Part shown: piece after piece, positions 4,205-19,088 of the stretch
Layout of the letters: every line of letters begins with the position of its first letter
How positions within the stretch are numbered: the first letter of the stretch is position 1
IMG/VR virus record: IMGVR_UViG_2585427766_000007
Origin: a virus
Lineage: Duplodnaviria > Heunggongvirae > Uroviricota > Caudoviricetes
Reading direction: 5' to 3' (one strand)
Length of the DNA stretch: 22,731 nucleotides
Translations under genes and position numbers: made by a program
The notes under the pieces: model-generated
Told to the model about the DNA's origin: nothing
The model's input: only the letters and a program-made list of their open reading frames with translations
Databases searched by the model: none

Positions 4205-4428
<224 letters not shown>

Positions 4429-5755: not shown

Positions 5756-5850
5756 GTTGAAGCCTGCTTTTTTATACTAAGTTGGCATTATAAAAAAGCA
5801 TTGCTTATCAATTTGTTGCAACGAACAGGTCACTATCAGTCAAAATAAAA
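5756..5850 (+). other. attL (B-O-P') of a lambda-type prophage; 15-bp core GCTTTTTTATACTAA at 5766-5780
   Basis: Left of core is TGAAGCCTGC (attB B arm); right of core is GTTGGCATTATAAAAAAGCATTGCTTATCAATTTGTTGCAACGAACAGGTCACTATCAGTCAAAATAAAATC (lambda attP P' arm with Int arm-type sites), running straight into int. Confidence 0.85.
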
Positions 5851-5853
5851 TCA

Positions 5854-6924
5854 TTATTTGATTTCAATTTTGTCCCACTCCCTGCCTCTGTCATCACGAT
5901 ACTGTGATGCCATGGTGTCCGACTTATGCCCGAGAAGATGTTGAGCAAACTTATCGCTTATCTGCTTCTCATAGAGTCTTGCAGACAAACTGCGCAACTC
6001 GTGAAAGGTAGGCGGATCCCCTTCGAAGGAAAGACCTGATGCTTTTCGTGCGCGCATAAAATACCTTGATACTGTGCCGGATGAAAGCGGTTCGCGACGA
6101 GTAGATGCAATTATGGTTTCTCCGCCAAGAATCTCTTTGCATTTATCAAGTGTTTCCTTCATTGATATTCCGAGAGCATCAACATGCAATACTGTTGGGA
6201 TGGCAATTTTTACGCCTGTTTTGCTTTGCTCGACATAAAGATATCCATCTACGATATCAGACCACTTCATTTCGCATAAATCACCAACTCGTTGCCCGGT
6301 AACAACAGCCAGTTCCATTGCAAGTCTGAGCCAACATGGTGATGATTCTGCTGCTTGATAAATTTTCAGGTATTCGTCAGCCGTAAGTCTTGATCTCCTT
6401 ACCTCTGATTTTGCTGCGCGAGTGGCAGCGACAGGGTTTGTTGTTATATGGCCTTCAGCTATTGCCTCTCGGAATGCATCGCTCAGTGTTGATCTGATTA
6501 ACTTGGCTGACGCCGCCTTGCCCTCGTCTATGTATCCATTGAGCATTGCCGCAATTTCTTTTGTGGTGATGTCTTCAAGTGGAGCATCAGGCAGACCCCT
6601 CCTTATTGCTTTAATTTTGCTCATGTAATTTATGAGTGTCTTCTGCTTGATTCCTCTGCTGGCCAGGATTTTTTCGTAGCGATCAAGCCATGAATGTAAC
6701 GTAACGGAATTATCACTGTTGATTCTCGCTGTCAGAGGCTTGTGTTTGTGTCCTGAAAATAACTCAATGTTGGCCTGTATAGCTTCAGTGATTGCGATTC
6801 GCCTGTCTCGGCCTAATCCAAACTCTTTACCCGTCCTTGGGTCCCTGTAGCAGTAATATCCATTGTTTCTTATATAAAGGTTAGGGGGTAAATCCCGGCG
6901 CTCATGACTTCGCCTTCTTCCCAT
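5854..6924 (-). CDS. int: Lambda-type integrase (tyrosine recombinase, 356 aa)
   Basis: Translation MGRRRSHERRDLPPNLYIRNNGYYCYRDPRTGKEFGLGRDRRIA... matches lambda Int as recalled; adjacent to attL. Confidence 0.95.
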   Translation of the reverse strand: MGRRRSHERRDLPPNLYIRNNGYYCYRDPRTGKEFGLGRDRRIAITEAIQANIELFSGHKHKPLTARINSDNSVTLHSWLDRYEKILASRGIKQKTLINYMSKIKAIRRGLPDAPLEDITTKEIAAMLNGYIDEGKAASAKLIRSTLSDAFREAIAEGHITTNPVAATRAAKSEVRRSRLTADEYLKIYQAAESSPCWLRLAMELAVVTGQRVGDLCEMKWSDIVDGYLYVEQSKTGVKIAIPTVLHVDALGISMKETLDKCKEILGGETIIASTRREPLSSGTVSRYFMRARKASGLSFEGDPPTFHELRSLSARLYEKQISDKFAQHLLGHKSDTMASQYRDDRGREWDKIEIK

Positions 6925-7120
6925 TTCTGATCCTCTTCAAAAGGCTACCTGTTACTGGTCGATTTAAGTCAACCTTTACCGCTGATTCGTGGAACAGATA
7001 TTCTCTTCCATCCTTAACCGGAGGAGGGAATATCCTGCATTCGCGCACCCATCGACGAACTGTTTCAAGGCTTCTTGGGCGTCGCTGGCGAGCGTTCCAC
7101 TCCTGAAGTGTCAAGTACAT
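6902..7120 (-). CDS. xis: Excisionase Xis (72 aa)
   Basis: MYLTLQEWNARQRRPRSLETVRRWVRECRIFPPPVKDGREYLFHESAVKVDLNRP... matches lambda Xis; overlaps int start as in lambda. Confidence 0.9.
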   Translation of the reverse strand: MYLTLQEWNARQRRPRSLETVRRWVRECRIFPPPVKDGREYLFHESAVKVDLNRPVTGSLLKRIRNGKKAKS

Positions 7121-7144
7121 CGCAAAGTCTCCGCAATTACACGC

Positions 7145-7168
7145 AAGAAAAAACCGCCATCAGGCGGC
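7145..7168 (-). terminator. Rho-independent terminator candidate upstream of xis
   Basis: Minus strand reads CCGCC-TGAT-GGCGG followed by TTTTTTCTT. Confidence 0.45.
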
Positions 7169-7340
7169 TTGGTGTTCTTTCAGTTCTTCAATTCGAATAT
7201 TGGTTACGTCTGCATGTGCTATCTGCGCCCACAGCATCCAGTGGTCATAGCAGTCGCTGATGTTCTCGGCTTCGATAACTCTGTTGAATGGTTCTCCATT
7301 CTATTCACCTGTGACTCGGAAGTGCATTTATCATCTCCAT

Positions 7341-7363
7341 AAAAAAACTCGCCGTAGCGAGTT
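7341..7363 (-). terminator. Rho-independent terminator candidate downstream of the 142-aa cargo gene
   Basis: Minus strand reads ACTCGC-TACG-GCGAGT followed by TTTTTTT, 46 bp after the stop at 7409. Confidence 0.55.
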
Positions 7364-7408
7364 CAGATATAATTTTCACCAAAGGCAGTAGTTGCTTTAT
7401 GCTAAGAA

Positions 7409-7837
7409 TTATTCAATATCTATTCCTGTAATATCTTTTATTTTTTTTCTTGCAAAGCCTTTTGCTAGTGATTTTGAAACACTCATAAGAGTACTAATCC
7501 CCTCATCCTTAAAGTTTGTTTTTATAGCTTGCCAGACCTCCTTTTGACGTAAGTCAGCAATAAAATCATGCCCTCTTGCTGTCAACCTCAGTGGTACTTC
7601 GATCCAACTATATTCAACACCTTCCCCTAACTCGTTGGACATTATATGACCGAACCCAGGTTTTCCATCAACCCTAACTATTAATTCGTAGTCACATAAT
7701 AATCGCATATGGAAAATAAAATTTTGGTCATATCTATTAAAGCCATTATCCTCTAGTTCACTAAGCATCGTGTCAGGGCCATAAGTTTTTTCGAATGCGA
7801 TAAGTAGATCTTTTAGATATTGCTGGTCTAATTTCAT
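7409..7837 (-). CDS. Hypothetical cytoplasmic protein (142 aa), AT-rich cargo gene; possible DUF2513/YjcQ-like fold
   Basis: ORF with GGAGG Shine-Dalgarno 5 nt before the ATG; own terminator; C-terminal motif RLTARGHDFIADLRQKEVW resembles a recalled L-T-W-x-G-H-E-F motif of DUF2513-type phage proteins (memory only, not searched). Confidence 0.6.
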   Translation of the reverse strand: MKLDQQYLKDLLIAFEKTYGPDTMLSELEDNGFNRYDQNFIFHMRLLCDYELIVRVDGKPGFGHIMSNELGEGVEYSWIEVPLRLTARGHDFIADLRQKEVWQAIKTNFKDEGISTLMSVSKSLAKGFARKKIKDITGIDIE

Positions 7838-7847
7838 TGCCGCCTCC

Positions 7848-7859
7848 GTGACATGTCAC
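7848..7859. promoter_or_regulatory. Perfect 12-bp palindrome GTGACATGTCAC abutting the Shine-Dalgarno of the 142-aa gene; candidate operator
   Basis: Exact self-complementary 12-mer seen directly; regulatory function is inferred. Confidence 0.3.
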
Positions 7860-8083
7860 AGAGATTTATATCATTAATTTTGTTTCGTGCCAGCCTTTGG
7901 TCACCCAGTATTGTGAGTCACCATTACACGGGCATGAATTAACAGGAACTCTCTCGCCGCACTTACGGCAACGTTTTCTGCTAATCGATTTTATACGCCA
8001 GCGCACACGTGCATCATCCTGGCGGCTCAGTAACGCTATGTACTCACCAAACTCGTAAGGCGCACGCCTGAAGCGGCGCGTGG

Positions 8084-8203
8084 CTCAGTTACGCTCCAGC
8101 ATTTCAATTTCCTGAGCATCAAGTACAAGCTCCAGCTTACGCATACCGGATGATGCTTGCTTGGCTCTCTGATCGGCTTTGCGCTCTGCTGCTGATTTAG
8201 TCA
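8084..8203 (-). CDS. Small hypothetical protein (39 aa), MTKSAAERKADQRAKQASSGMRKLELVLDAQEIEMLERN
   Basis: ATG preceded by AGGAAA 6 nt upstream; charged helical peptide; below the size cutoff of the ORF track; coding status unproven. Confidence 0.3.
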
Positions 8204-8497
8204 TTCTGCTTTTCCTGCATCAGGAGAAAGACAATCATGGCGGCGCGGATACTTCCGGTATCTTTTTACGCGATATTACCCTTCAATGACACATACAAGA
8301 AGACAGCCATCAGCAGGAATGAGTGAGGAATCGACAACCAGTAACGCTTAATTATCTATAGTGTCGTATTTGCTTCATAAAATATGGCGAATAACACAAA
8401 GCCCGCAGCAGCTCATTGTGCGGACTTTTCTTATACTTACTTCCTAGAGATAATTCTATGGAGGCATTAAATTAATGCTGTCATTGGTAATATCATA

Positions 8498-9112
8498 TTA
8501 TCTAAAAGTCTTTCCACTTTTAACGTCTAGATATATTCTGTTCGACAACGTCATTCCTCCGCAATATGTGAAATAGATGTTTTCACCCTTATTGCTTGAT
8601 GCCATCCACCCTCCAACTTCCTTAAAATCGCTCTCCGTGCAGACACCTTCACTTATTAACTTCCTAGCTGCCGAAGAAAACTCTTTTTTGTATATACGGT
8701 AGTCATCAGATCCTTTGATTAAGGTATCATTTCTGCTCGCATTTTCAGCAGGATCTGATGGCCTTTCACTGCTAAGATCACTAAGTTTAACCCATTCTGA
8801 AAACTTGCCATTAACGATTCCGTTTTTTCTTGTGCAGGATTTATTACCTTCTTTAATATATTCGCTTTCCCCTCCCACACATGAGGCTGAATATGGCTCA
8901 GTTATACGAACCCATTCACCTTTTTTTTCTAGAAAATCTACGCCTTCCCTGAAAAATAGTTTCCCAGCCACTCCACATTTACTTGAAGGGCAGGTATGTC
9001 TTTCCGTTCGATCAACAACAACCCAAAGTTTTGATTCATTTTTTGCCATTGCCGATGGTATTTGAGATGAGACAATTAACGTAAGCCCTAAAATTAGTGT
9101 TGATTTTTTCAT
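8498..9112 (-). CDS. Secreted/periplasmic Cys-containing protein of unknown function (204 aa), AT-rich cargo gene
   Basis: N-terminal signal peptide MKKSTLILGLTLIVSSQIPSAMA with AXA cleavage motif; AAGGAA Shine-Dalgarno; ~250-bp upstream intergenic region suggests its own promoter. Confidence 0.65.
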   Translation of the reverse strand: MKKSTLILGLTLIVSSQIPSAMAKNESKLWVVVDRTERHTCPSSKCGVAGKLFFREGVDFLEKKGEWVRITEPYSASCVGGESEYIKEGNKSCTRKNGIVNGKFSEWVKLSDLSSERPSDPAENASRNDTLIKGSDDYRIYKKEFSSAARKLISEGVCTESDFKEVGGWMASSNKGENIYFTYCGGMTLSNRIYLDVKSGKTFR

Positions 9113-9362
9113 TGTAATTTCCTTTTACTTTTTACAAAGCATTTAATCATGACTGATTATCTCTAAGCGTAGTAACAGCCTTGTGCGAAACATGTTACCA
9201 AATCGCCATTTCAGTGTATCCACAGTTAGGCTGCCACTTCAAGGATTCCTAGTTACATGGTACGTAAGCGTAATATCCCGTTGGTTGGCAGGTAATAACT
9301 CTGATCAATTCTCCCTTGTCTTTTGCTCTTACGTATGCAAATCTTGTACACTCAACCTAGGC

Positions 9363-9665
9363 TTACAGTTCAGCAATACGCTTACTTCCATCCGAGATAA
9401 CACCTTCGTAATATTCACGCTGCTCGTTGAGTTTTGATTTTGCTGCTTCCAGCTCAACGCGCAGCTTTCCTACCGTTAGCGCAATTTCCTCGTTCTCCTG
9501 GTCGCGGCGTTTGATGTATTGCTGGTTTCTTTCCCGCTCATCCAGCAGTTCCAGCACAATCGATGGTGTTACCAATTCATGGAAAAGGTCTGCGTCAAAT
9601 CCCCAGTCGTCATGCATTGCCTGCTCTGCCGCTTCACGCAGTGCCTGAGAGTTAATTTCGCTCAC
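9363..9665 (-). CDS. Coiled-coil protein in the lambda ea22 position (100 aa), possibly a shortened Ea22 homolog
   Basis: Acidic, heptad-rich sequence (ELEAAKSKLNEQREYYEG); start overlaps the orf73 stop; sits where ea22 lies in lambda; identity from recall is uncertain. Confidence 0.45.
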   Translation of the reverse strand: MSEINSQALREAAEQAMHDDWGFDADLFHELVTPSIVLELLDERERNQQYIKRRDQENEEIALTVGKLRVELEAAKSKLNEQREYYEGVISDGSKRIAEL

Positions 9666-9883
9666 TTCGAACCTCTCTGTTTACTGATAAGCTCCAGATC
9701 TTCCTGGCAACTTGCACAAGTCCGACAACCCTGAACGACCAGGCGTCTTCGTTCATCTATCGGATCGCCACACTCACAACAATGAGTGGCAGATATAGCC
9801 TGGTGGTTCAGGCGGCGCATTTTTATTGCTGTGTTGCGCTGTAATTCTTCAATTTCTGATGCTGAATCAATGATGTCTGCCAT
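9662..9883 (-). CDS. TraR/DksA-type C4 zinc-finger protein (73 aa), lambda orf73-like
   Basis: CCECGDPIDERRRLVVQGCRTCASCQ gives a CxxC...CxxC zinc ribbon typical of TraR/DksA; position matches lambda orf73. Confidence 0.7.
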   Translation of the reverse strand: MADIIDSASEIEELQRNTAIKMRRLNHQAISATHCCECGDPIDERRRLVVQGCRTCASCQEDLELISKQRGSK

Positions 9884-9937
9884 CTTCCATTAATCCCTGA
9901 ATTGTTGGTTAATACGCTTGAGGGTGAATGCGAATAA

Positions 9938-9959
9938 TAAAAAAGGAGCCTGTAGCTCC
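9938..9959 (-). terminator. Rho-independent terminator candidate within the pL operon
   Basis: Minus strand reads GGAGC-TACAG-GCTCC followed by TTTTTTTATT. Confidence 0.45.
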
Positions 9960-9981
9960 CTGATGATTTTGCTTTTCATGT

Positions 9982-10197
9982 TCATCGTTCCTTAAAGACG
10001 CCGTTTAACATGCCGATTGCCAGGCTTAAATGAGTCGGTGTGAATCCCATCAGCGTTACCGTTTCGCGGTGCTTCTTCAGTACGCTACGGCAAATGTCAT
10101 CGACGTTTTTATCCGGAAACTGCTGTCTGGCTTTTTTGATTTCAGAATTAGCCTGACGGGCAATGCTGCGAAGGGCGTTTTCCTGCTGAGGTGTCAT
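9982..10197 (-). CDS. Lambda orf61-like small protein; start uncertain (ATG 10197 gives 71 aa, ATG 10263 gives 93 aa)
   Basis: ORF in the lambda orf61 position between orf63 and orf73; no strong Shine-Dalgarno at either start. Confidence 0.5.
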   Translation of the reverse strand: MTPQQENALRSIARQANSEIKKARQQFPDKNVDDICRSVLKKHRETVTLMGFTPTHLSLAIGMLNGVFKER

Positions 10198-10273
10198 TGA
10201 ACAAGTCCCATGTCGGCAAGCATAAGCACACAGAATATGAAGCCCGCTGCCAGAAAAATGCATTCAGTGGTTG

Positions 10274-10465
10274 TCATACCTGGTCTCTCTCATCTGCTTC
10301 TGCTTTCGCCACCATCATTTCCAGCTTTTGTGAAAGGGATGCGGCTAACGTGTGAAATTCTTCGTCTGTTTCTACTGGTATTGGCACAAACCTGACTCCA
10401 ATTTGAGCGAGGCTATGTGCCATCTCGATACTCGTTCTTAACTCAACGGGAGATGCTTTGTGCAT
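10274..10465 (-). CDS. Lambda orf63-like small protein (63 aa)
   Basis: [36 protein letters not shown]... and the surrounding DNA match the lambda sequence just downstream of exo as recalled. Confidence 0.6.
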   Translation of the reverse strand: MHKASPVELRTSIEMAHSLAQIGVRFVPIPVETDEEFHTLAASLSQKLEMMVAKAEADERDQV

Positions 10466-10626
10466 ACAGCCCCTCGTTTATTATTTATCTCCTCAGCCAG
10501 CCGCTGGGCTTTCAGTGGATTTTGGATAACAGAAAGGCTGGGAAATACCCAGCCTCGCTTTGTAACGGAGTAGACGAAAGTGATCGCGCCTACCCGGATA
10601 TTATCGTGAGGATGCGTCATCGCCAT
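10438..10626 (-). CDS. Lambda orf60a-like small protein (62 aa)
   Basis: [29 protein letters not shown]... overlaps the exo stop exactly as in lambda (GCAATGGCGATGACGCATCCTCACGATAATATCCGGGTAGGCGC). Confidence 0.55.
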
Positions 10627-11297
10627 TGCTCCCCAAATACAAAACCAATTTCAGCCAGTGCCTCGTCCATTTTTTCGATGAACTCCGGCACCATCTCGTC
10701 AAAACTCGCCATGTACTTTTCATTCCGCTCAATCACGACATAATGCAGGCCTTCACGCTTCATGCGCGGGTCATAGTTGGCAAAGTACCAGGCATCTTTT
10801 CGCGTCACCCACATGCTGTACTGCACCTGGGCCATGTAAGCCGATTTTATTGCCTCGAAACCACCGAGCCGGAATTTCATGAAATCCCGGGAGGTAAACG
10901 GGCATTTCAGTTCAAGGCCGTTGCCGTCACTGCATAAACCATCGGGAGAGCAGGCGGTGCGCATATTTTCGTCGCGATAGATGATCGGGGATTCAGTAAT
11001 ATTCACGCCGGAAGTGAATTCAAACAGGGTTCTGGCGTCGTTCTCGTACTGTTTTCCCCAGGCCAGCGCCTTAGCATTAACTTCCGGAGCCACACCGGTG
11101 CAAACCTCAGCCAGCAGGGTGTGGAAGTAGGACATTTTCATGTCAGGCCACTTCTTTCCTGAGCGGGGCTTTGCTATCACGTTGTGAACTTCTGAAGCGG
11201 TGATGACGCCGAGCCGTAATTTGTGCCATGCATCATCCCCCTGTTCGACAGCTCTCACGTCGATCCCGGTACGCTGCAGGATAATGTCCGGTGTCAT
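10617..11297 (-). CDS. exo: Lambda exonuclease (Red alpha, 226 aa)
   Basis: [62 protein letters not shown]... matches lambda Exo. Confidence 0.95.
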
Positions 11298-12079
11298 GCT
11301 GCCACCTTCTGCTCAGTGGCTTTCTGTTTCAGGAATCCAAGAGCTTTCACTGCTTCGGCCTGTGTCAGTTCTGACGATGCGCGAATGTCGCGGCGAAATA
11401 TCTGGGAACAGAGCGGCAATAAGTCGTCATCCCATGTTTTATCCAGGGCGATCAGCAGAGTGTTAATCTCCTGCATGGTTTCATCGTTAACCGGAGTGAT
11501 GTCGCGTTCCGGCTGACGTTCTGCAGTGTATGCGGTATTTTCGACAATGCGCTCGGCTTCATCCTTGTCATAGATACCAGCAAATCCGAAGGCGAGACGG
11601 GCACACTGAATCATGGCTTTATGCCGTAACATCCGTTTGGGATGCGACTGCCACGGCCCCGTGATTTCTCTGCCTTCGCGGGTTTTGAATGGTTCGCGGC
11701 GGCATTCATCCATCCACTCGGTAACGCAGATCGGATGATTACGGTCCTTGCGGTAAATCCGGCATGTACATGATTCATTGTCCTGCTCAAAGTCCATGCC
11801 ATCAAACTGCTGGTTTTCATTGATGATACGGGACCAGCCATCAACGCCCACCACCGGAACGATGCCGTTCTGCTTGTCAGGGAAGGCGTAAATTTCTTTC
11901 GTCCACGGATTAAGGCCGTACTGGTTGGCGACGATCAACAATGCGATGAACTGCGCATCGCTGGCATCACCTTTAAATGCCGTCTGGCGAAGAGTGGTGA
12001 TCAGTTCCTGTGGGTCGACAGAATCCATGCCGACACGTTCAGCCAGCTTCCCAGCCAGCGTTGCGAGTGCTGTACTCAT
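11294..12079 (-). CDS. bet: Bet single-strand annealing protein (Red beta, 261 aa)
   Basis: [66 protein letters not shown]... matches lambda Bet. Confidence 0.95.
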
Positions 12080-14353: not shown

Positions 14354-14893
14354 ATGCAACCACTTCCATACCAACAGACTAGCGGATTTAGCCCGACTGC
14401 GGTGATAAATCGTTCTCAAACAAAACAGGTGCCAGGCCACGAAAAAATCCGTGATGCCGTCCGCGCCTGGTCGGCTGTAGATAATCAGGATGTCGTTGCC
14501 ACACTCATTGTGAATGAGTATCGGGAGCAGGGCGGCGGCACCATCGATTTCCCTGATGATGTCAGCCGTGCACGCCAGAAGCTGTTCCGCTTCCTCGATA
14601 ACAAATTCGATTCTGAAAAATACCGAAATAACGTGCGTGAACTGACCCCGGCAATTCTGGCGGTACTACCGCTGGAATATCGCGGTTACCTGGTTGAGCA
14701 GGATAGCTTCATGGCCAGGTTGGCTGAAATGGAAAAGGAACTCAGTGAGGCAAAACAGGCTGTCATTCTCAACGCACCACGCCACCAGAAACTGAAGGAA
14801 ATTAGTGAAGGTATTGTATCGATGTTTCGTGTGGACCCAGATCTGGCTGGTCCATTGATGGCGATGGTTACTACCATGCTGGGGGCGATATGA
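14354..14893 (+). CDS. CII-like early regulator (179 aa), CP-933/YdaT-type, putative
   Basis: Occupies the cII position after cro; AAGGAG Shine-Dalgarno; family assignment is from recall of prophage CII-like proteins and is uncertain. Confidence 0.45.
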   Translation: MQPLPYQQTSGFSPTAVINRSQTKQVPGHEKIRDAVRAWSAVDNQDVVATLIVNEYREQGGGTIDFPDDVSRARQKLFRFLDNKFDSEKYRNNVRELTPAILAVLPLEYRGYLVEQDSFMARLAEMEKELSEAKQAVILNAPRHQKLKEISEGIVSMFRVDPDLAGPLMAMVTTMLGAI

Positions 14894-14979
14894 CAGGTTC
14901 AGAAATGGCGAAAGCCGGTCTGCTGGAACAGAACCGACTTTCAGGTGCAAATCGTAACACACTCATTGCGGGAGGAATT

Positions 14980-15909
14980 ATGGCAAACACTGCTGAGATA
15001 TTCAATTTTCCAGTGCCGGATGCGGCACAAAAGGAGCCGCGCGTGGCAGATCTCGATGATGGTTATACGCGCATTGCAAATGAGTTGCTGGAAGCTGTGA
15101 TGCTGGCCGGATTAACACAGCACCAGCTTCTGGTCTTCCTGGCTGTCATGCGCAAAACATATGGCTTTAATAAAAAACTGGATTGGGTGAGCAACGAGCA
15201 ACTGTCCGGATTGACCGGGATATTACCGCACAAGTGTTCTGCTGCAAAAAGTGTTCTGGTAAAGCGTGGGATTTTGATTCAGAGCGGGCGGAATATCGGT
15301 ATTAATAATGTGGTCAGTGAATGGTCAACATTACCCGAATCAGGTAAGAAAAATAAAGTTTACCTGAAAGAGGTAAATTTACCTGAATCAGGTAAGAAAA
15401 GTTTACCCAAATCAGGTAAAGGCGTTTACCCGAATCAGGTAAACACAAAAGACAAACTAACAAAAGACAATATAAAACCTTTTTCGTCCGAGAATTCTGG
15501 CGAATCCTCTGACCAACCAGAAAACGATCTTCCTGTGGTGAAACCAGATGCTGCAATTCAGAGCGGCAGCAAGTGGGGGACAGCAGAAGACCTGACCGCC
15601 GCAGAGTGGATGTTTGACATGGTGAAGACCATCGCACCATCAGCCAGAAAACCGAATTTTGCAGGGTGGGCTAACGATATCCGCCTGATGCGTGAACGTG
15701 ACGGACGTAACCACCGCGACATGTGCGTGCTTTTCCGCTGGGCATGCCAGGACAACTTCTGGTCCGGTAACGTGCTAAGTCCGGCCAAACTCCGCGACAA
15801 GTGGACCCAACTCGAAATCAACCGTAACAAGCAACAGGCAGGCATGATAGCCAGCAAACCAAAACTCGACCTGACAAACACTGACTGGATTTACGGGGTG
15901 GATTTATGA
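14980..15909 (+). CDS. O: Replication initiator O (chimeric: non-lambda N-terminal iteron-binding domain, lambda-type C-terminal P-interaction domain)
   Basis: ATG 14980 with GGAGG Shine-Dalgarno; C-terminal ~110 aa (SGSKWGTAEDLTAAEWMFDMVKTIAPSARKPNFAGWANDIRLMRERDGRNHRDMCVLFRW...) matches lambda O; N-terminal part differs; internal iterons. Confidence 0.85.
   Translation: MANTAEIFNFPVPDAAQKEPRVADLDDGYTRIANELLEAVMLAGLTQHQLLVFLAVMRKTYGFNKKLDWVSNEQLSGLTGILPHKCSAAKSVLVKRGILIQSGRNIGINNVVSEWSTLPESGKKNKVYLKEVNLPESGKKSLPKSGKGVYPNQVNTKDKLTKDNIKPFSSENSGESSDQPENDLPVVKPDAAIQSGSKWGTAEDLTAAEWMFDMVKTIAPSARKPNFAGWANDIRLMRERDGRNHRDMCVLFRWACQDNFWSGNVLSPAKLRDKWTQLEINRNKQQAGMIASKPKLDLTNTDWIYGVDL
15331..15442 (+). 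repeat. Replication origin iterons inside O: five copies of TTACC(C/T)-N5-GGTAA, followed by an A-rich stretch
   Basis: Copies at 15331, 15360, 15379, 15403 and 15426, each itself palindromic; A-rich CACAAAAGACAAACTAACAAAAGACAATATAAAAC follows, as at lambda ori. Confidence 0.7.
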
Positions 15910-16607
15910 AAAACATCGCCGCACAGATGGTTAACTTTGACCGTGAGCAGATGCGTCGGATCGCCAACAACATGCCGGAACAGTACGACGAAAAGCCGCA
16001 GGTACAGCAGGTAGCGCAGATCATCAACGGTGTGTTCAGCCAGTTACTGGCAACTTTCCCGGCGAGCCTGGCTAACCGTGACCAGAATGAACTGAACGAA
16101 ATCCGCCGCCAGTGGGTGCTGGCTTTTCGGGAAAACGGGATCACCACAATGGAACAGGTTAACGCTGGAATGCGCGTAGCCCGTCGGCAGAATCGACCAT
16201 TCCTGCCATCACCCGGGCAGTTTGTCGCCTGGTGCCGGGAAGAAGCATCCGTTACCGCCGGGCTGCCAAACGCCAGCGAGCTGGTTGATATGGTTTACGA
16301 GTATTGCCGGAAGCGCGGGCTGTATCCGGATGCAGAGTCTTATCCGTGGAAATCAAACGCGCACTACTGGCTGGTTACCAACCTGTATCAGAACATGCGG
16401 GCCAATGCGTTGACTGACGCGGAATTACGGCGCAAGGCTGCCGATGAACTGTCCTGTATGACCGCACGAATTAACCGTGGTGAGGCTATACCTGAACCAG
16501 TAAAACAACTTCCTGTCATGGGCGGTAGACCTCTAAATCGTGCACAGGCTCTGGCGAAGATCGCAGAAATCAAAGCTAAGTTTGGGCTGAAAGGAGCAAG
16601 GGTATGA
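15906..16607 (+). CDS. P: Replication protein P (DnaB helicase loader, 233 aa)
   Basis: MKNIAAQMVNFDREQMRRIANNMPEQYDEKPQVQQVAQIINGVFSQLL... matches lambda P; start overlaps the O stop. Confidence 0.95.
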   Translation: MKNIAAQMVNFDREQMRRIANNMPEQYDEKPQVQQVAQIINGVFSQLLATFPASLANRDQNELNEIRRQWVLAFRENGITTMEQVNAGMRVARRQNRPFLPSPGQFVAWCREEASVTAGLPNASELVDMVYEYCRKRGLYPDAESYPWKSNAHYWLVTNLYQNMRANALTDAELRRKAADELSCMTARINRGEAIPEPVKQLPVMGGRPLNRAQALAKIAEIKAKFGLKGARV

Positions 16608-16906
16608 CGGGCAAAGAGGCAATTATTCATTACCTGGGGACTCATAAGAAATTCTGTGCGCAGGACGTTGCCGCGGTAACAGGCGCAACGGTAACCAGCA
16701 TAAATCAGGCTGCGGCTAAAATGGCACGGGCAGGTCTTCTGGCTATCGAAGGTAAGGTCTGGCGAACGGTGTATTACCGGTTTGCTACCAGAGAAGAACG
16801 GGAAGGAAAGGTGAGCACGAATCTGATTTTTAAGGAGTGTCGCCAGAGTGCCGCGATGAAACGGGTATTGAGGGTATATAAAAGAACATCAATGGGTACA
16901 CAATGA
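16604..16906 (+). CDS. ren: Ren protein (Rex exclusion-relief, about 100 aa)
   Basis: MTGKEAIIHYLGTH...TGATVTSINQAAAKMARAGLL... matches lambda Ren as recalled; start overlaps the P stop. Confidence 0.8.
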   Translation: MTGKEAIIHYLGTHKKFCAQDVAAVTGATVTSINQAAAKMARAGLLAIEGKVWRTVYYRFATREEREGKVSTNLIFKECRQSAAMKRVLRVYKRTSMGTQ

Positions 16907-16923
16907 TGAAACAGGTGAGTTGA

Positions 16924-16958
16924 GTTCAAACTGTAGTACAATTCTCTCCAGTTTGAAC
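16924..16958 (+). promoter_or_regulatory. Perfect 10-bp inverted repeat GTTCAAACTG-N15-CAGTTTGAAC just upstream of emrE
   Basis: Arms at 16924-16933 and 16949-16958 are exact reverse complements; lies between the ren stop and the emrE start. Confidence 0.3.
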
Positions 16959-16973
16959 AGGAAAGAATATTCT

Positions 16974-17306
16974 ATGAACCCTTATATTTATCTTGGTGGT
17001 GCAATACTTGCAGAGGTCATTGGTACAACCTTAATGAAGTTTTCAGAAGGTTTTACACGGTTATGGCCATCTGTTGGTACAATTATTTGTTATTGTGCAT
17101 CATTCTGGTTATTAGCTCAGACGCTGGCTTATATTCCTACAGGGATTGCTTATGCTATCTGGTCAGGAGTCGGTATTGTCCTGATTAGCTTACTGTCATG
17201 GGGACTTTTCGGCCAACGGCTGGACCTGCCAGCCATTATAGGCATGATGTTGATTTGTGTCGGTGTGTTGGTTATTAATTTATTGTCACGAAGCACACCA
17301 CATTAA
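16974..17306 (+). CDS. emrE: EmrE small multidrug resistance (SMR) efflux protein (110 aa)
   Basis: MNPYIYLGGAILAEVIGTTLMKFSEGFTRLWPSVGTIICYCASFWLLAQTLAYIPTGIAYAIWSGVGIVL... near-identical to E. coli EmrE as recalled; ORF-track start at 16920 is an upstream extension. Confidence 0.95.
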   Translation: MNPYIYLGGAILAEVIGTTLMKFSEGFTRLWPSVGTIICYCASFWLLAQTLAYIPTGIAYAIWSGVGIVLISLLSWGLFGQRLDLPAIIGMMLICVGVLVINLLSRSTPH

Positions 17307-17336
17307 AAATAATTTGTTTCTAAACGACTAAAATAT

Positions 17337-17376
17337 GGAGGCTCTTATATTTATATGAGCCTCGTTTTATGCTTTT
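17337..17376 (+). terminator. Rho-independent terminator after emrE
   Basis: GAGGCTC-N12-GAGCCTC hairpin followed by GTTTTATGCTTTTT. Confidence 0.6.
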
Positions 17377-17561
17377 TGTTAATGTCTTTATTTTTTTATG
17401 TATTCTTTTGTGCTTTCAAGATTATGGCGTAAGAAAATTGCAATACGATTATTGTTGTATATTCAAGATAATGTGACCTTAATTGTCTTTTTAAATAAAA
17501 ATTAAACAAAATTATATCCCACCACTAAGGTTTATAAAAGCATACGTTAGCAGGTGTCACC

Positions 17562-19088
17562 ATGAAAAAAGCCATAGCATATATGCGATTTTCATCACCA
17601 GGTCAGATGTCTGGCGACTCATTAAACCGACAGAGAAGACTTATTGCTGAATGGTTAAAGGTAAATAGTGATTATTATCTTGATACCATAACATATGAAG
17701 ATTTAGGATTAAGTGCATTCAAAGGAAAGCATGCACAATCAGGAGCTTTTTCGGAATTTTTAGATGCTATAGAGCATGGTTATATATTGCCAGGAACTAC
17801 ATTGTTAGTTGAAAGTCTGGACAGACTTTCAAGAGAAAAAGTCGGTGAAGCGATTGAACGTCTGAAATTGATTTTGAATCACGGTATTGATGTTATAACT
17901 CTTTGCGACAATACAGTCTATAATATTGACTCTTTGAATGAGCCATATTCATTAATAAAAGCCATACTTATAGCACAAAGGGCAAATGAAGAAAGCGAGA
18001 TAAAGTCAAGTCGGGTTAAATTATCATGGAAGAAAAAACGGCAGGATGCACTGGAATCAGGTACGATTATGACGGCGTCTTGTCCGAGATGGCTCTCCTT
18101 AGATGACAAAAGAACGGCTTTTGTTCCAGACCCCGACAGGGTGAAAACTATTGAGCTAATTTTTAAACTCAGGATGGAAAGGCGCTCATTGAATGCAATA
18201 GCCAAGTATTTAAATGATCATGCTGTAAAGAATTTCTCAGGAAAAGAAAGTGCATGGGGACCTTCTGTAATTGAAAAATTATTAGCGAATAAAGCTCTGA
18301 TAGGTATATGCGTACCTTCATATCGTGCAAGAGGTAAAGGAATAAGTGAAATCGCTGGCTATTATCCCAGAGTCATATCAGATGATTTGTTTTACGCTGT
18401 ACAGGAAATTCGGTTGGCACCTTTTGGTATTAGCAATAGTAGCAAAAATCCTATGTTGATAAATCTACTTCGAACAGTTATGAAGTGCGAGGCTTGTGGT
18501 AATACCATGATTGTTCATGCGGTATCTAGAAGTTTGCATGGCTATTATGTTTGTCCGATGAGAAGACTGCATCGATGTGACAGGCCATCAATAAAGAGAG
18601 ATTTGGTTGATTATAATATCATTAATGAGTTGCTTTTTAATTGTAGTAAAATCCAACCAGTTGAAAACAAGAAAGATGCTAATGAAACTTTAGAGTTGAA
18701 AATTATTGAGCTCCAGATGAAAATTAATAATTTAATTGCTGCATTATCTGTTGCGCCTGAAGTTACCGCTATAGCAGAAAAAATCAGAGTATTAGATAAG
18801 GAATTACGAAGGGCTTCTGTATCATTAAAAACTTTGAAGAGTAAAGCGGTGAGTTCACTTGGTGATTTTCATGCTATTGACTTAACCAGTAAAAATGGGC
18901 GAGAGCTATGTCGTACACTTGCCTATAAAACATTCGAAAAAATCATAATCAATACAGATAATAAAACCTGTGATATCTATTTTATGAATGGCATTGTTTT
19001 TAAACACTATCCTTTAATGAAAACAATATCCGCCCAGCAGGCGATAAGTACTCTCAAATATATGGTTGATGGTGAGGTTTATTTTTGA
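17562..19088 (+). CDS. ybcK: Large serine recombinase (resolvase-type N-terminal catalytic domain plus recombinase and zinc-ribbon domains), YbcK-like, 508 aa
   Basis: N-terminus MKKAIAYMRFSSPGQMSGDSLNRQRRLI has the resolvase catalytic-serine motif context; Cys cluster CEACGN...CPMRRLHRCDRP; AT-rich; follows emrE as in DLP12. Confidence 0.85.
   Translation: MKKAIAYMRFSSPGQMSGDSLNRQRRLIAEWLKVNSDYYLDTITYEDLGLSAFKGKHAQSGAFSEFLDAIEHGYILPGTTLLVESLDRLSREKVGEAIERLKLILNHGIDVITLCDNTVYNIDSLNEPYSLIKAILIAQRANEESEIKSSRVKLSWKKKRQDALESGTIMTASCPRWLSLDDKRTAFVPDPDRVKTIELIFKLRMERRSLNAIAKYLNDHAVKNFSGKESAWGPSVIEKLLANKALIGICVPSYRARGKGISEIAGYYPRVISDDLFYAVQEIRLAPFGISNSSKNPMLINLLRTVMKCEACGNTMIVHAVSRSLHGYYVCPMRRLHRCDRPSIKRDLVDYNIINELLFNCSKIQPVENKKDANETLELKIIELQMKINNLIAALSVAPEVTAIAEKIRVLDKELRRASVSLKTLKSKAVSSLGDFHAIDLTSKNGRELCRTLAYKTFEKIIINTDNKTCDIYFMNGIVFKHYPLMKTISAQQAISTLKYMVDGEVYF

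Follow-up and report, generated by a model that had tools for sequence, protein, structure and literature searches.

The canonical products of the exo-xis region of lambdoid phages are cytoplasmic regulators. What, then, is the role of a gene for an exported protein in this region, and is it a phage gene at all? We addressed this question for an open reading frame (ORF) at positions 8498-9112, on the minus strand, of the viral record IMGVR_UViG_2585427766_000007. The whole stretch of 22,731 nucleotides (nt), hereafter the window, is a segment of Escherichia coli chromosome containing a lambdoid prophage. The ORF is a real gene under strong purifying selection, its product is almost certainly exported via the Sec pathway, and the C-terminal domain of this product has no known structural or sequence family. 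Together with a conserved leader, the gene is a self-sufficient accessory cassette, widely mobile and not specific to phages. We tentatively read the product as a periplasmic binder or blocker that would dock on the cell wall and protect the envelope.

The coding status of the ORF is supported by its sequence context and by its evolution. The start codon is preceded by a Shine-Dalgarno sequence (AAGGA, positions 9120-9124 on the minus strand, 7 nt 5′ of the ATG), and the precursor of 204 amino acids (22.7 kDa) has a predicted mature form, residues 24-204, of 20.3 kDa with an isoelectric point of 8.7. The RefSeq entry for this product, WP_000749915.1, is named 'hypothetical protein', and the identical protein occurs on at least 830 contigs, always as 'hypothetical'. 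Of 5,426 complete E. coli genomes, 133 had the 1-kb region around the ORF, on plasmids in 11 cases, and the ORF was unbroken in at least 129 E. coli genomes. Chlobot is the single sequenced phage with the 1-kb region, at the same exo-xis position. Ratios of nonsynonymous to synonymous substitution (dN/dS, Nei-Gojobori) were 0.18 against the Chlobot copy, 0.14 against the copy of plasmid pA18-1 and about 0.09 against the copy of Escherichia fergusonii (dS 0.71). These values support the minus-strand frame as the coding frame; an antisense ORF (8715-9065, plus strand), present in 14 loci, was rejected as a shadow of that conserved frame. Full-length homologues were found in E. fergusonii (87% identity), in Pseudomonas and Aeromonas (61-68%, likewise 204 amino acids long) and in many metagenomes, and 32 columns were invariant among 39 homologues with identities down to 42%.

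The N-terminus of the product (MKKSTLILGLTLIVSSQIPSAMA) is laid out as a Sec signal peptide. It begins with the charged MKK, continues with the hydrophobic stretch TLILGLTLIV, whose Kyte-Doolittle mean over 10 residues reaches 2.66, and has A-M-A at -3/-1, directly ahead of K24. The assignment followed rules, namely a charged n-region, an h-region of 10-15 residues and small residues at -3/-1. There is no cysteine before C41, hence no lipobox ([LVI][ASTVI][GAS]C), which makes the signal one of signal-peptidase-I type and not that of a lipoprotein; Pfam LPAM_1 matched the protein at an expectation value (E) of only 0.18. In the AlphaFold model, the predicted local distance difference test (pLDDT) was below 50 at residues 1-6, 15-17 and 21-24, with block means of 44-68 within residues 1-24, and above 90 for almost all residues beyond 24. 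The columns of the signal region scored 0.33 for conservation, and those of the mature part 0.62-0.71. Export signals were found throughout the family: among the N-termini of 228 members, 78 were of the short Sec type, 30 carried a lipobox and 78 were longer with a hydrophobic segment, and only 8 of the 228 lacked a hydrophobic N-terminal segment. The longer N-termini comprised either a signal peptide with extra domains or a cytoplasmic zinc ribbon with a membrane anchor. That a signal peptide, a lipobox and a membrane anchor replace one another in this way suggests that the module is consistently located outside the cytoplasm.

AlphaFold2, run with an alignment of 39 sequences, returned a model with a mean pLDDT of 89.6 and a predicted template modelling score (pTM) of 0.72, in which an SH3b-fold domain and a small C-terminal domain are joined by an ordered linker (Table 1). 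The first domain has the small beta-barrel fold of the SH3 type and includes a C41-x4-C46 loop as well as a conserved insertion of 38 residues (70-107) bearing C78 and C93. The Pfam model SH3_3 (PF08239) scored 16 bits against the target (E 0.014) and did not reach its cutoff of 27; homologues bear precomputed PF08239 matches, and one of them, P0082, scores 26.7 bits. The C-terminal domain consists of two helices and three strands, with conserved SDD, GGW, YFTYCGG and N-R-I-Y-L-D motifs and the C158/C184 pair. No hydrolase fold matched this domain, and its fold neighbours were weak and of the binder or inhibitor type only. A profile compared with the sequences of the PDB gave single-helix matches to de novo designed TIM barrels (E >= 27), which we rejected as spurious. 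The domain is new to structure and family databases.

All six cysteines (C41, C46, C78, C93, C158 and C184) are invariant in the 39 diverse homologues. Among relatives, the pattern CCCCCC occurred in 136 and xxx-CC in 20, with CC--CC, CCxxCC and xxCCCC also represented, and these co-occurrences fit the pairs 41-46, 78-93 and 158-184, each within one domain. We infer that the target protein resides in the periplasm with three disulfides. A previous sequence-only reading had proposed a Sec signal peptide with an AXA site, cysteines as possible disulfides and a GEWVRI segment loosely reminiscent of SH3b folds. The first two proposals agree with the features described above, and the segment indeed falls within the SH3b fold of the confident model.

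The C-terminal domain is the constant element of a wider family. A profile of the whole two-domain protein, searched against 1.84 billion representative proteins, retrieved 829 clusters at E <= 1e-3 and 148 at E <= 1e-30, and the profile of the C-terminal domain by itself retrieved 303 proteins. Its partners were cysteine-rich SH3b domains, ordinary SH3_3 domains, ankyrin repeats and an unannotated N-terminal domain containing cysteines. It also stands alone, as an exported protein or lipoprotein of ~100 amino acids, for example in Agrobacterium ('exported hypothetical protein') and in Marinobacter. A genome scan located the family in Pseudomonas, Vibrio, Marinobacter, alpha-, beta- and epsilon-proteobacteria and Acidobacteriota. 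The target matches PHROG 8310, labelled 'unknown function'; no Pfam or NCBIfam model covers the C-terminal domain, and literature searches by accession, PHROG identifier and topic returned nothing on the protein. A Pfam scan of the target at E <= 1 gave SH3_3 and LPAM_1 only, with no match to Bor, Lom, Cor, Ivy or MliC/PliC. The sequence-only reading, which had assigned no specific family, thus still holds, and Bor and Lom, which it had named as examples of the principle of prophage-encoded envelope proteins, have no Pfam match to the target. Regarding the unannotated domain, its motif is GPKEDCE..LGY..DY.F...G.F......FG.LTCY and it precedes the SH3b and C-terminal domains in longer relatives (P0089, P0090, P0118, P0124, P0138, P0159 and P0164); four of these were scanned (P0089, P0118, P0124 and P0164), and the domain had no Pfam match in them.

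How the gene is placed in the prophage was resolved by comparison with lambda (NC_001416). The prophage lies at attB-lambda, with the lambda attachment (att) core GCTTTTTTATACTAA at 5766-5780. By blastn, the window is 98.6% identical to lambda at 5766-7373 and 97.5% identical at 9363-11369, with no match between 7373 and 9363. In place of lambda 29334-30092, the location of ea8.5 and of the C-terminal half of ea22, the prophage has the target cassette together with a pseudogene and a DUF2513 gene. Since homology to lambda ea22 ends where the substitution begins, the prophage lacks both the C-terminal domain of Ea22 and ea8.5; orf60a, orf63, orf61, orf73 and the first ~100 codons of ea22 are retained. 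The target is thus placed between truncated ea22 and xis, inside the exo-xis block. An identical 1-kb stretch occurs in E. coli AH65, where the RefSeq order is ybhC, integrase, excisionase, DUF2513 gene, target, truncated ead/Ea22-like gene, TraR/DksA (lambda orf73), exo, bet, gam and kil.

The guanine-cytosine (GC) content is ~37-40% across the target and DUF2513 parts of the substitution, against ~50% in the flanks; for the ORF itself it is 38.5%, and 30.7% at third codon positions. Absence from closely related phages and a different base composition are two marks of a moron, an extra transcription unit in a prophage, and the target shows both relative to lambda; for a third, a promoter and a terminator of its own, there are the candidates described below. 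The sequence-only reading had called a secreted protein unusual for the early region. This proved apt, as an envelope gene is atypical for that part of a lambdoid genome, and the retained exo-xis ORFs of the window had no export-related Pfam match. Expression of the exo-xis genes is reported to fall in the earliest stage of lytic development (PMC8614690, PMC10834534).

The contexts of the family extend far beyond this position. Lambda-like prophages of E. coli carry the gene in the exo-xis region, and IncA-type and other large plasmids carry it within a piece of the same region. In E. fergusonii it is found on an 88-kb plasmid with P1-like genes nearby (pol III theta, an S24/HumD-like peptidase and dut), in an Aeromonas prophage it lies between the antiterminator region and the lysis genes, a zone typical of morons, and in Citrobacter braakii it is the main cargo gene of a 5.3-kb ColRNAI (ColE1-type) plasmid. 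Five Pseudomonas loci place it directly beside a tyrosine integrase of ~490 amino acids, and a P. veronii plasmid has two paralogues ~2 kb apart. Chromosomal copies in Vibrio and on a metagenome contig of alphaproteobacterial type lie in ordinary neighbourhoods. Between the lambda-like and the P1-like (E. fergusonii) copies, similarity is confined to window positions 8496-9254, that is, the ORF and 142 nt upstream. We clustered the ORFs within 4 kb at 46 loci and found no neighbour conserved across the family, the sole shared neighbour being the integrase of the five Pseudomonas loci. The lack of a conserved partner gene indicates that the target gene works alone.

The leader that travels with the ORF is under constraint, as the 150 nt before the start codon (leader included) were 78% identical in a global alignment of the two copies and thus more conserved than synonymous sites, at which identity was 54%. 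By eye, a candidate weak sigma-70 promoter can be read in the leader. Its TTGAAG and TACACT elements are the same in the two copies, whereas the 18-nt spacer shows 6 differences, and it has 8 of 12 consensus matches where the scan threshold was 9 of 12. A sigma-E-type promoter was also considered and discarded as a poor match by eye, and Rfam gave no match in the leader or the target gene. On the other side of the gene, a GC-rich hairpin followed by a U-rich tail is a possible intrinsic terminator. The RNA fold of 8385-8500 on the minus strand, which contains this stem, had a whole-region z-score of -2.1; the terminator scan called none on the minus strand beside the ORF. The hairpin is outside the stretch common with the E. 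fergusonii copy, hence not in the mobile cassette.

Table 1. Coordinates of the target gene, its parts and nearby features in the window
Feature	Positions	Strand	Basis or remark
Target ORF, 204 codons and stop	8498-9112	-	ATG start; ORF listing
Sec/SPase-I-type signal peptide, codons 1-23, predicted cleavage after A-M-A	9044-9112	-	Sequence features, pLDDT, conservation, relatives
SH3b-fold domain, residues ~27-110	8783-9034	-	
Ordered linker, residues 111-128, motif R117-P118-x-D120-P121	8729-8782	-	Invariant or near-invariant columns; pLDDT 88-96
Small alpha/beta C-terminal domain, residues 129-204	8501-8728	-	
Leader of 142 nt travelling with the ORF	9113-9254	-	Similarity to E. fergusonii P1-like plasmid copy
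Candidate weak sigma-70 promoter, 18-nt spacer	TTGAAG 9237-9242; TACACT 9213-9218	-	Read by eye
Possible intrinsic terminator (hairpin), 69 nt after the stop	8398-8429	-	RNA fold
Substitution relative to lambda, 1,989 bp	7374-9362		blastn against NC_001416, composition, AH65 annotation
DUF2513 gene, downstream of the target	7409-7837	-	
Pseudogene with internal stop, between target and DUF2513 gene	7866-8204	-	
ead/Ea22-like ORF, first ~100 codons only	9363-9665	-	Homology to lambda ea22 ends at 9363
naRNA4 (CssrE) match	4297-4367	+	Rfam, 60.7 bits

Several of the neighbouring genes deserve description in their own right. The pseudogene beside the target has an unbroken 339-bp counterpart on plasmid pA18-1, and in phage Chlobot the counterpart is split and annotated as 'UmuD-like protein' and 'transcriptional regulator'. 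In Marinobacter litoralis, another DUF2513 gene (L055, 6401-6763) follows a lipoprotein homologue that has the C-domain by itself, at a distance of 80 nt. The pairing of DUF2513 with the family in two very distant contexts may be a coincidence or a loose functional link; it was not seen in ~40 other loci, where phmmer and hmmsearch gave no such match, nor in three further contexts. On the E. fergusonii plasmid, the S24/HumD-like peptidase gene is directly upstream of the target homologue. The lambdoid exo-xis piece from orf60a to DUF2513, target included, is also borne by large resistance plasmids found in Enterobacter, Klebsiella, Citrobacter and E. coli. On one of them, the IncA plasmid pA18-1 of Citrobacter freundii (L010, 5514-8704), this piece adjoins IS5, a Tn5403-family transposase and an arsenic-resistance operon. 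The paralogues of the P. veronii plasmid (L050, 2232-2876 and 4980-5612) have a DsbA-family gene ~3.4 kb downstream. At the Pseudomonas monsensis locus (L002, 1156-5971 and 6402-12411), the integrase island that carries a homologue adjoins two tandem modules of S-type pyocin, DUF6572 and immunity genes, and also encodes a KilA-N protein and a 336-amino acid protein without a Pfam match. A bacteriocin pairing was considered for the 5.3-kb plasmid and rejected, its other ORFs being mob-like or membrane/coiled-coil proteins without a toxin domain.

Further from the target, the naRNA4 match (CssrE, a nucleoid-associated non-coding RNA) scored above the gathering score and sits in host DNA near ybhC, outside the prophage. 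The right arm of the prophage (~14354-19088, plus strand) is mosaic, with a YdaT-domain protein at the cII position followed by replication genes and, further along, emrE, a frameshifted ylcJ and the ybcK recombinase, the last three being known from DLP12, a defective prophage of E. coli K-12.

Comparison with known systems places the protein among several groups without assigning it to any. The SH3b domains (SH3_3/PF08239) of endolysins, NlpC/P60 peptidases and lysostaphin lack the conserved 38-residue insertion and the two disulfide pairs of the target domain, which is moreover fused to a small domain of non-catalytic appearance instead of a hydrolase and would operate in a Gram-negative periplasm. 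The lysozyme inhibitors Ivy, MliC/PliC and PliG resemble the target in being small exported Gram-negative proteins whose families, like that of the target, include soluble periplasmic and lipoprotein forms. Lambdoid morons and lysogenic-conversion genes (bor, lom, cor and llp of T5) share with it the status of an extra gene absent from the reference phage, a foreign composition and an envelope-targeted product. However, the target has no sequence relationship to them, its E. coli copy is neither a lipoprotein nor a beta-barrel of the outer membrane, its place is in the early exo-xis region and not in a late one, no consensus promoter was found for it, and its family reaches far beyond phages. 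With the canonical exo-xis genes of lambda and Shiga toxin (Stx) phages (orf60a, orf63, orf61, orf73, ea22 and ea8.5), the target shares the block and the presumed early transcription driven by pL, but it has taken the place of ea8.5 and of the C-terminal half of ea22 without being related to either. T4 Spackle (gp61.3) is a periplasmic inhibitor of the tail lysozyme gp5 that excludes superinfection (PMC7677548). Like the target as read here, it is a small, phage-encoded, early-transcribed, disulfide-bonded periplasmic protein with a signal peptide, and it is the best precedent for the proposed blocking of an incoming muralytic enzyme, by functional analogy only; the two proteins share neither homology nor a common fold, Spackle being an alpha-helical bundle.

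Based on these findings, we tentatively postulate that the target is a wall-docked periplasmic binder or blocker that protects the envelope, the reading that we favour while placing it short of even odds. Its product would be a Sec-exported, disulfide-stabilised two-domain protein of ~20 kDa in the periplasm. The SH3b domain most likely docks it on peptidoglycan or on a cell-wall peptide, and the C-terminal domain of ~75 residues is most likely a binding or blocking module and not an enzyme. This is suggested by the small size of the domain, by the lack of an invariant histidine, by the fact that its only cysteines are paired, by its occurrence as a stand-alone exported unit and by its binder- or inhibitor-type weak fold neighbours. 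From its insertion site in the exo-xis region, the cassette would be read through by the early leftward pL operon, and its own weak promoter may add expression. Bound to the wall, the protein would then neutralise an agent attacking or traversing the periplasm, be it lysozyme, a peptidoglycan hydrolase that is delivered there or the muralytic tip of a phage attempting superinfection. Spread as a single gene on phages, plasmids and islands is as expected of a self-sufficient protective factor, and the conserved leader brought into a P1-like element points to autonomous expression.

Several observations weigh against this protective role. Every database name of the protein is 'hypothetical', without annotation of function, and no defence-protein model of PADLOC-DB 2.0 matched it at E <= 1. 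The consensus scan found no sigma-70 promoter upstream of the target, which leaves its expression in the lysogen in doubt. The disulfide pairing is read solely from the co-occurrence of cysteines among relatives, and SH3b domains may have ligands other than peptidoglycan. Moreover, many family members lie in ordinary chromosomal neighbourhoods. The Vibrio copy, for example, is found between nap genes and a GGDEF-EAL gene, with a phosphonate-binding protein gene also nearby, and other copies adjoin metX/metW-type genes and pheST. Such neighbourhoods suit a housekeeping envelope role no less than a protective role. The superinfection-exclusion or host-interaction role that the sequence-only reading had suggested is only an analogy.

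The rival that survives best is a general envelope or peptidoglycan-maintenance factor of benefit to many Gram-negatives, which mobile elements merely carry and which excludes neither phages nor toxins. For example, it could be a structural protein associated with the wall, or it could serve an endogenous wall enzyme as adaptor or regulator. We consider it a serious contender, if a less probable one than the protective binder. The breadth of the family, with its 829 clusters across alpha-, beta-, gamma- and epsilon-proteobacteria and Acidobacteriota, speaks for it, as do several copies that are single genes in core-like neighbourhoods and the architectures with extra periplasmic domains or membrane anchors, which resemble resident envelope proteins. 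Yet the copies of Enterobacterales, Aeromonas and Pseudomonas are on phages, plasmids and integrase islands, the presence of the gene in only 133 of the 5,426 E. coli genomes is an accessory pattern and not that of a housekeeping gene, and no operon partner, for instance a wall hydrolase or synthase, is conserved. Because plasmids, integrase islands and chromosomes also carry the family, a phage-versus-phage function is no more likely than a generic one in the envelope.

The same distribution bears on a role confined to the lytic programme of the phage itself. Here an early pL product would shield or modify the wall of the infected cell, for example to forestall premature lysis or lysis from without or to adjust the timing of lysis, and would have no role in the lysogen. 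The location inside the pL-transcribed block, between truncated ea22 and xis, the absence of a called consensus promoter for the target itself, the early expression reported for exo-xis genes (PMC8614690, PMC10834534) and the precedent of T4 Spackle as an early periplasmic protein of such kind (PMC7677548) are all in keeping with this role. It is nonetheless improbable, given that non-phage elements (the 5.3-kb ColE1-type plasmid, conjugative plasmids and chromosomes) carry the same gene, that the cassette takes its own conserved leader into a P1-like element and that lambda does without the gene. That the protein is a cell-wall enzyme, namely a peptidoglycan hydrolase or modifier that has a new catalytic domain and is targeted by its SH3b domain, is very unlikely: the C-terminal domain has only ~75 residues and no invariant histidine, both of its cysteines belong to a co-occurring pair, and neither a hydrolase fold nor a Pfam or NCBIfam catalytic model matched. 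A chance or decaying ORF without function in the prophage, which the two pseudogenes and the truncated ea22 among its neighbours in the substitution might bring to mind, is effectively refuted by the unbroken frame in at least 129 E. coli genomes, the low dN/dS, the full-length 204-amino acid homologues at 61-68% identity and the confident structure model. The probability that these readings leave over belongs to something else.

A bolder form of the protective binder can also be put forward, although we regard it as rather doubtful in its entirety. The C-terminal module would define a new and widespread exported family of single-gene periplasmic immunity or exclusion factors. Phages, phage-plasmids, small plasmids and integrase islands would disseminate it in the form of a cassette that includes a regulatory leader. 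The E. coli version would be tethered to the wall by SH3b, and the family would neutralise a class of attackers acting in the periplasm, for instance phage tail muralytic enzymes, wall-degrading effectors of the type VI secretion system or lysozymes, by means of a fold new among inhibitors.

As a kind, the target is known, being an accessory envelope protein of mobile elements and prophages with an SH3b targeting domain; what is new is the C-terminal domain joined to it. The gain in annotation is solid, since a protein labelled 'hypothetical', also in PHROG 8310, now has a confident domain annotation (signal peptide, SH3b and new domain) and a domain family is defined that Pfam and the PDB lack. 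The mobility pattern is suggestive, and any mechanism is inferred. If the protective role is true, the protein would be a new structural class among the few periplasmic single-protein exclusion or immunity factors, and this would explain its independent capture by lambda-like phages, a P1-like phage-plasmid, ColE1-type and conjugative plasmids and integrase islands. The exo-xis region of lambda, usually discussed as a source of cytoplasmic modulators of the lysis-lysogeny decision, can carry envelope cargo too.
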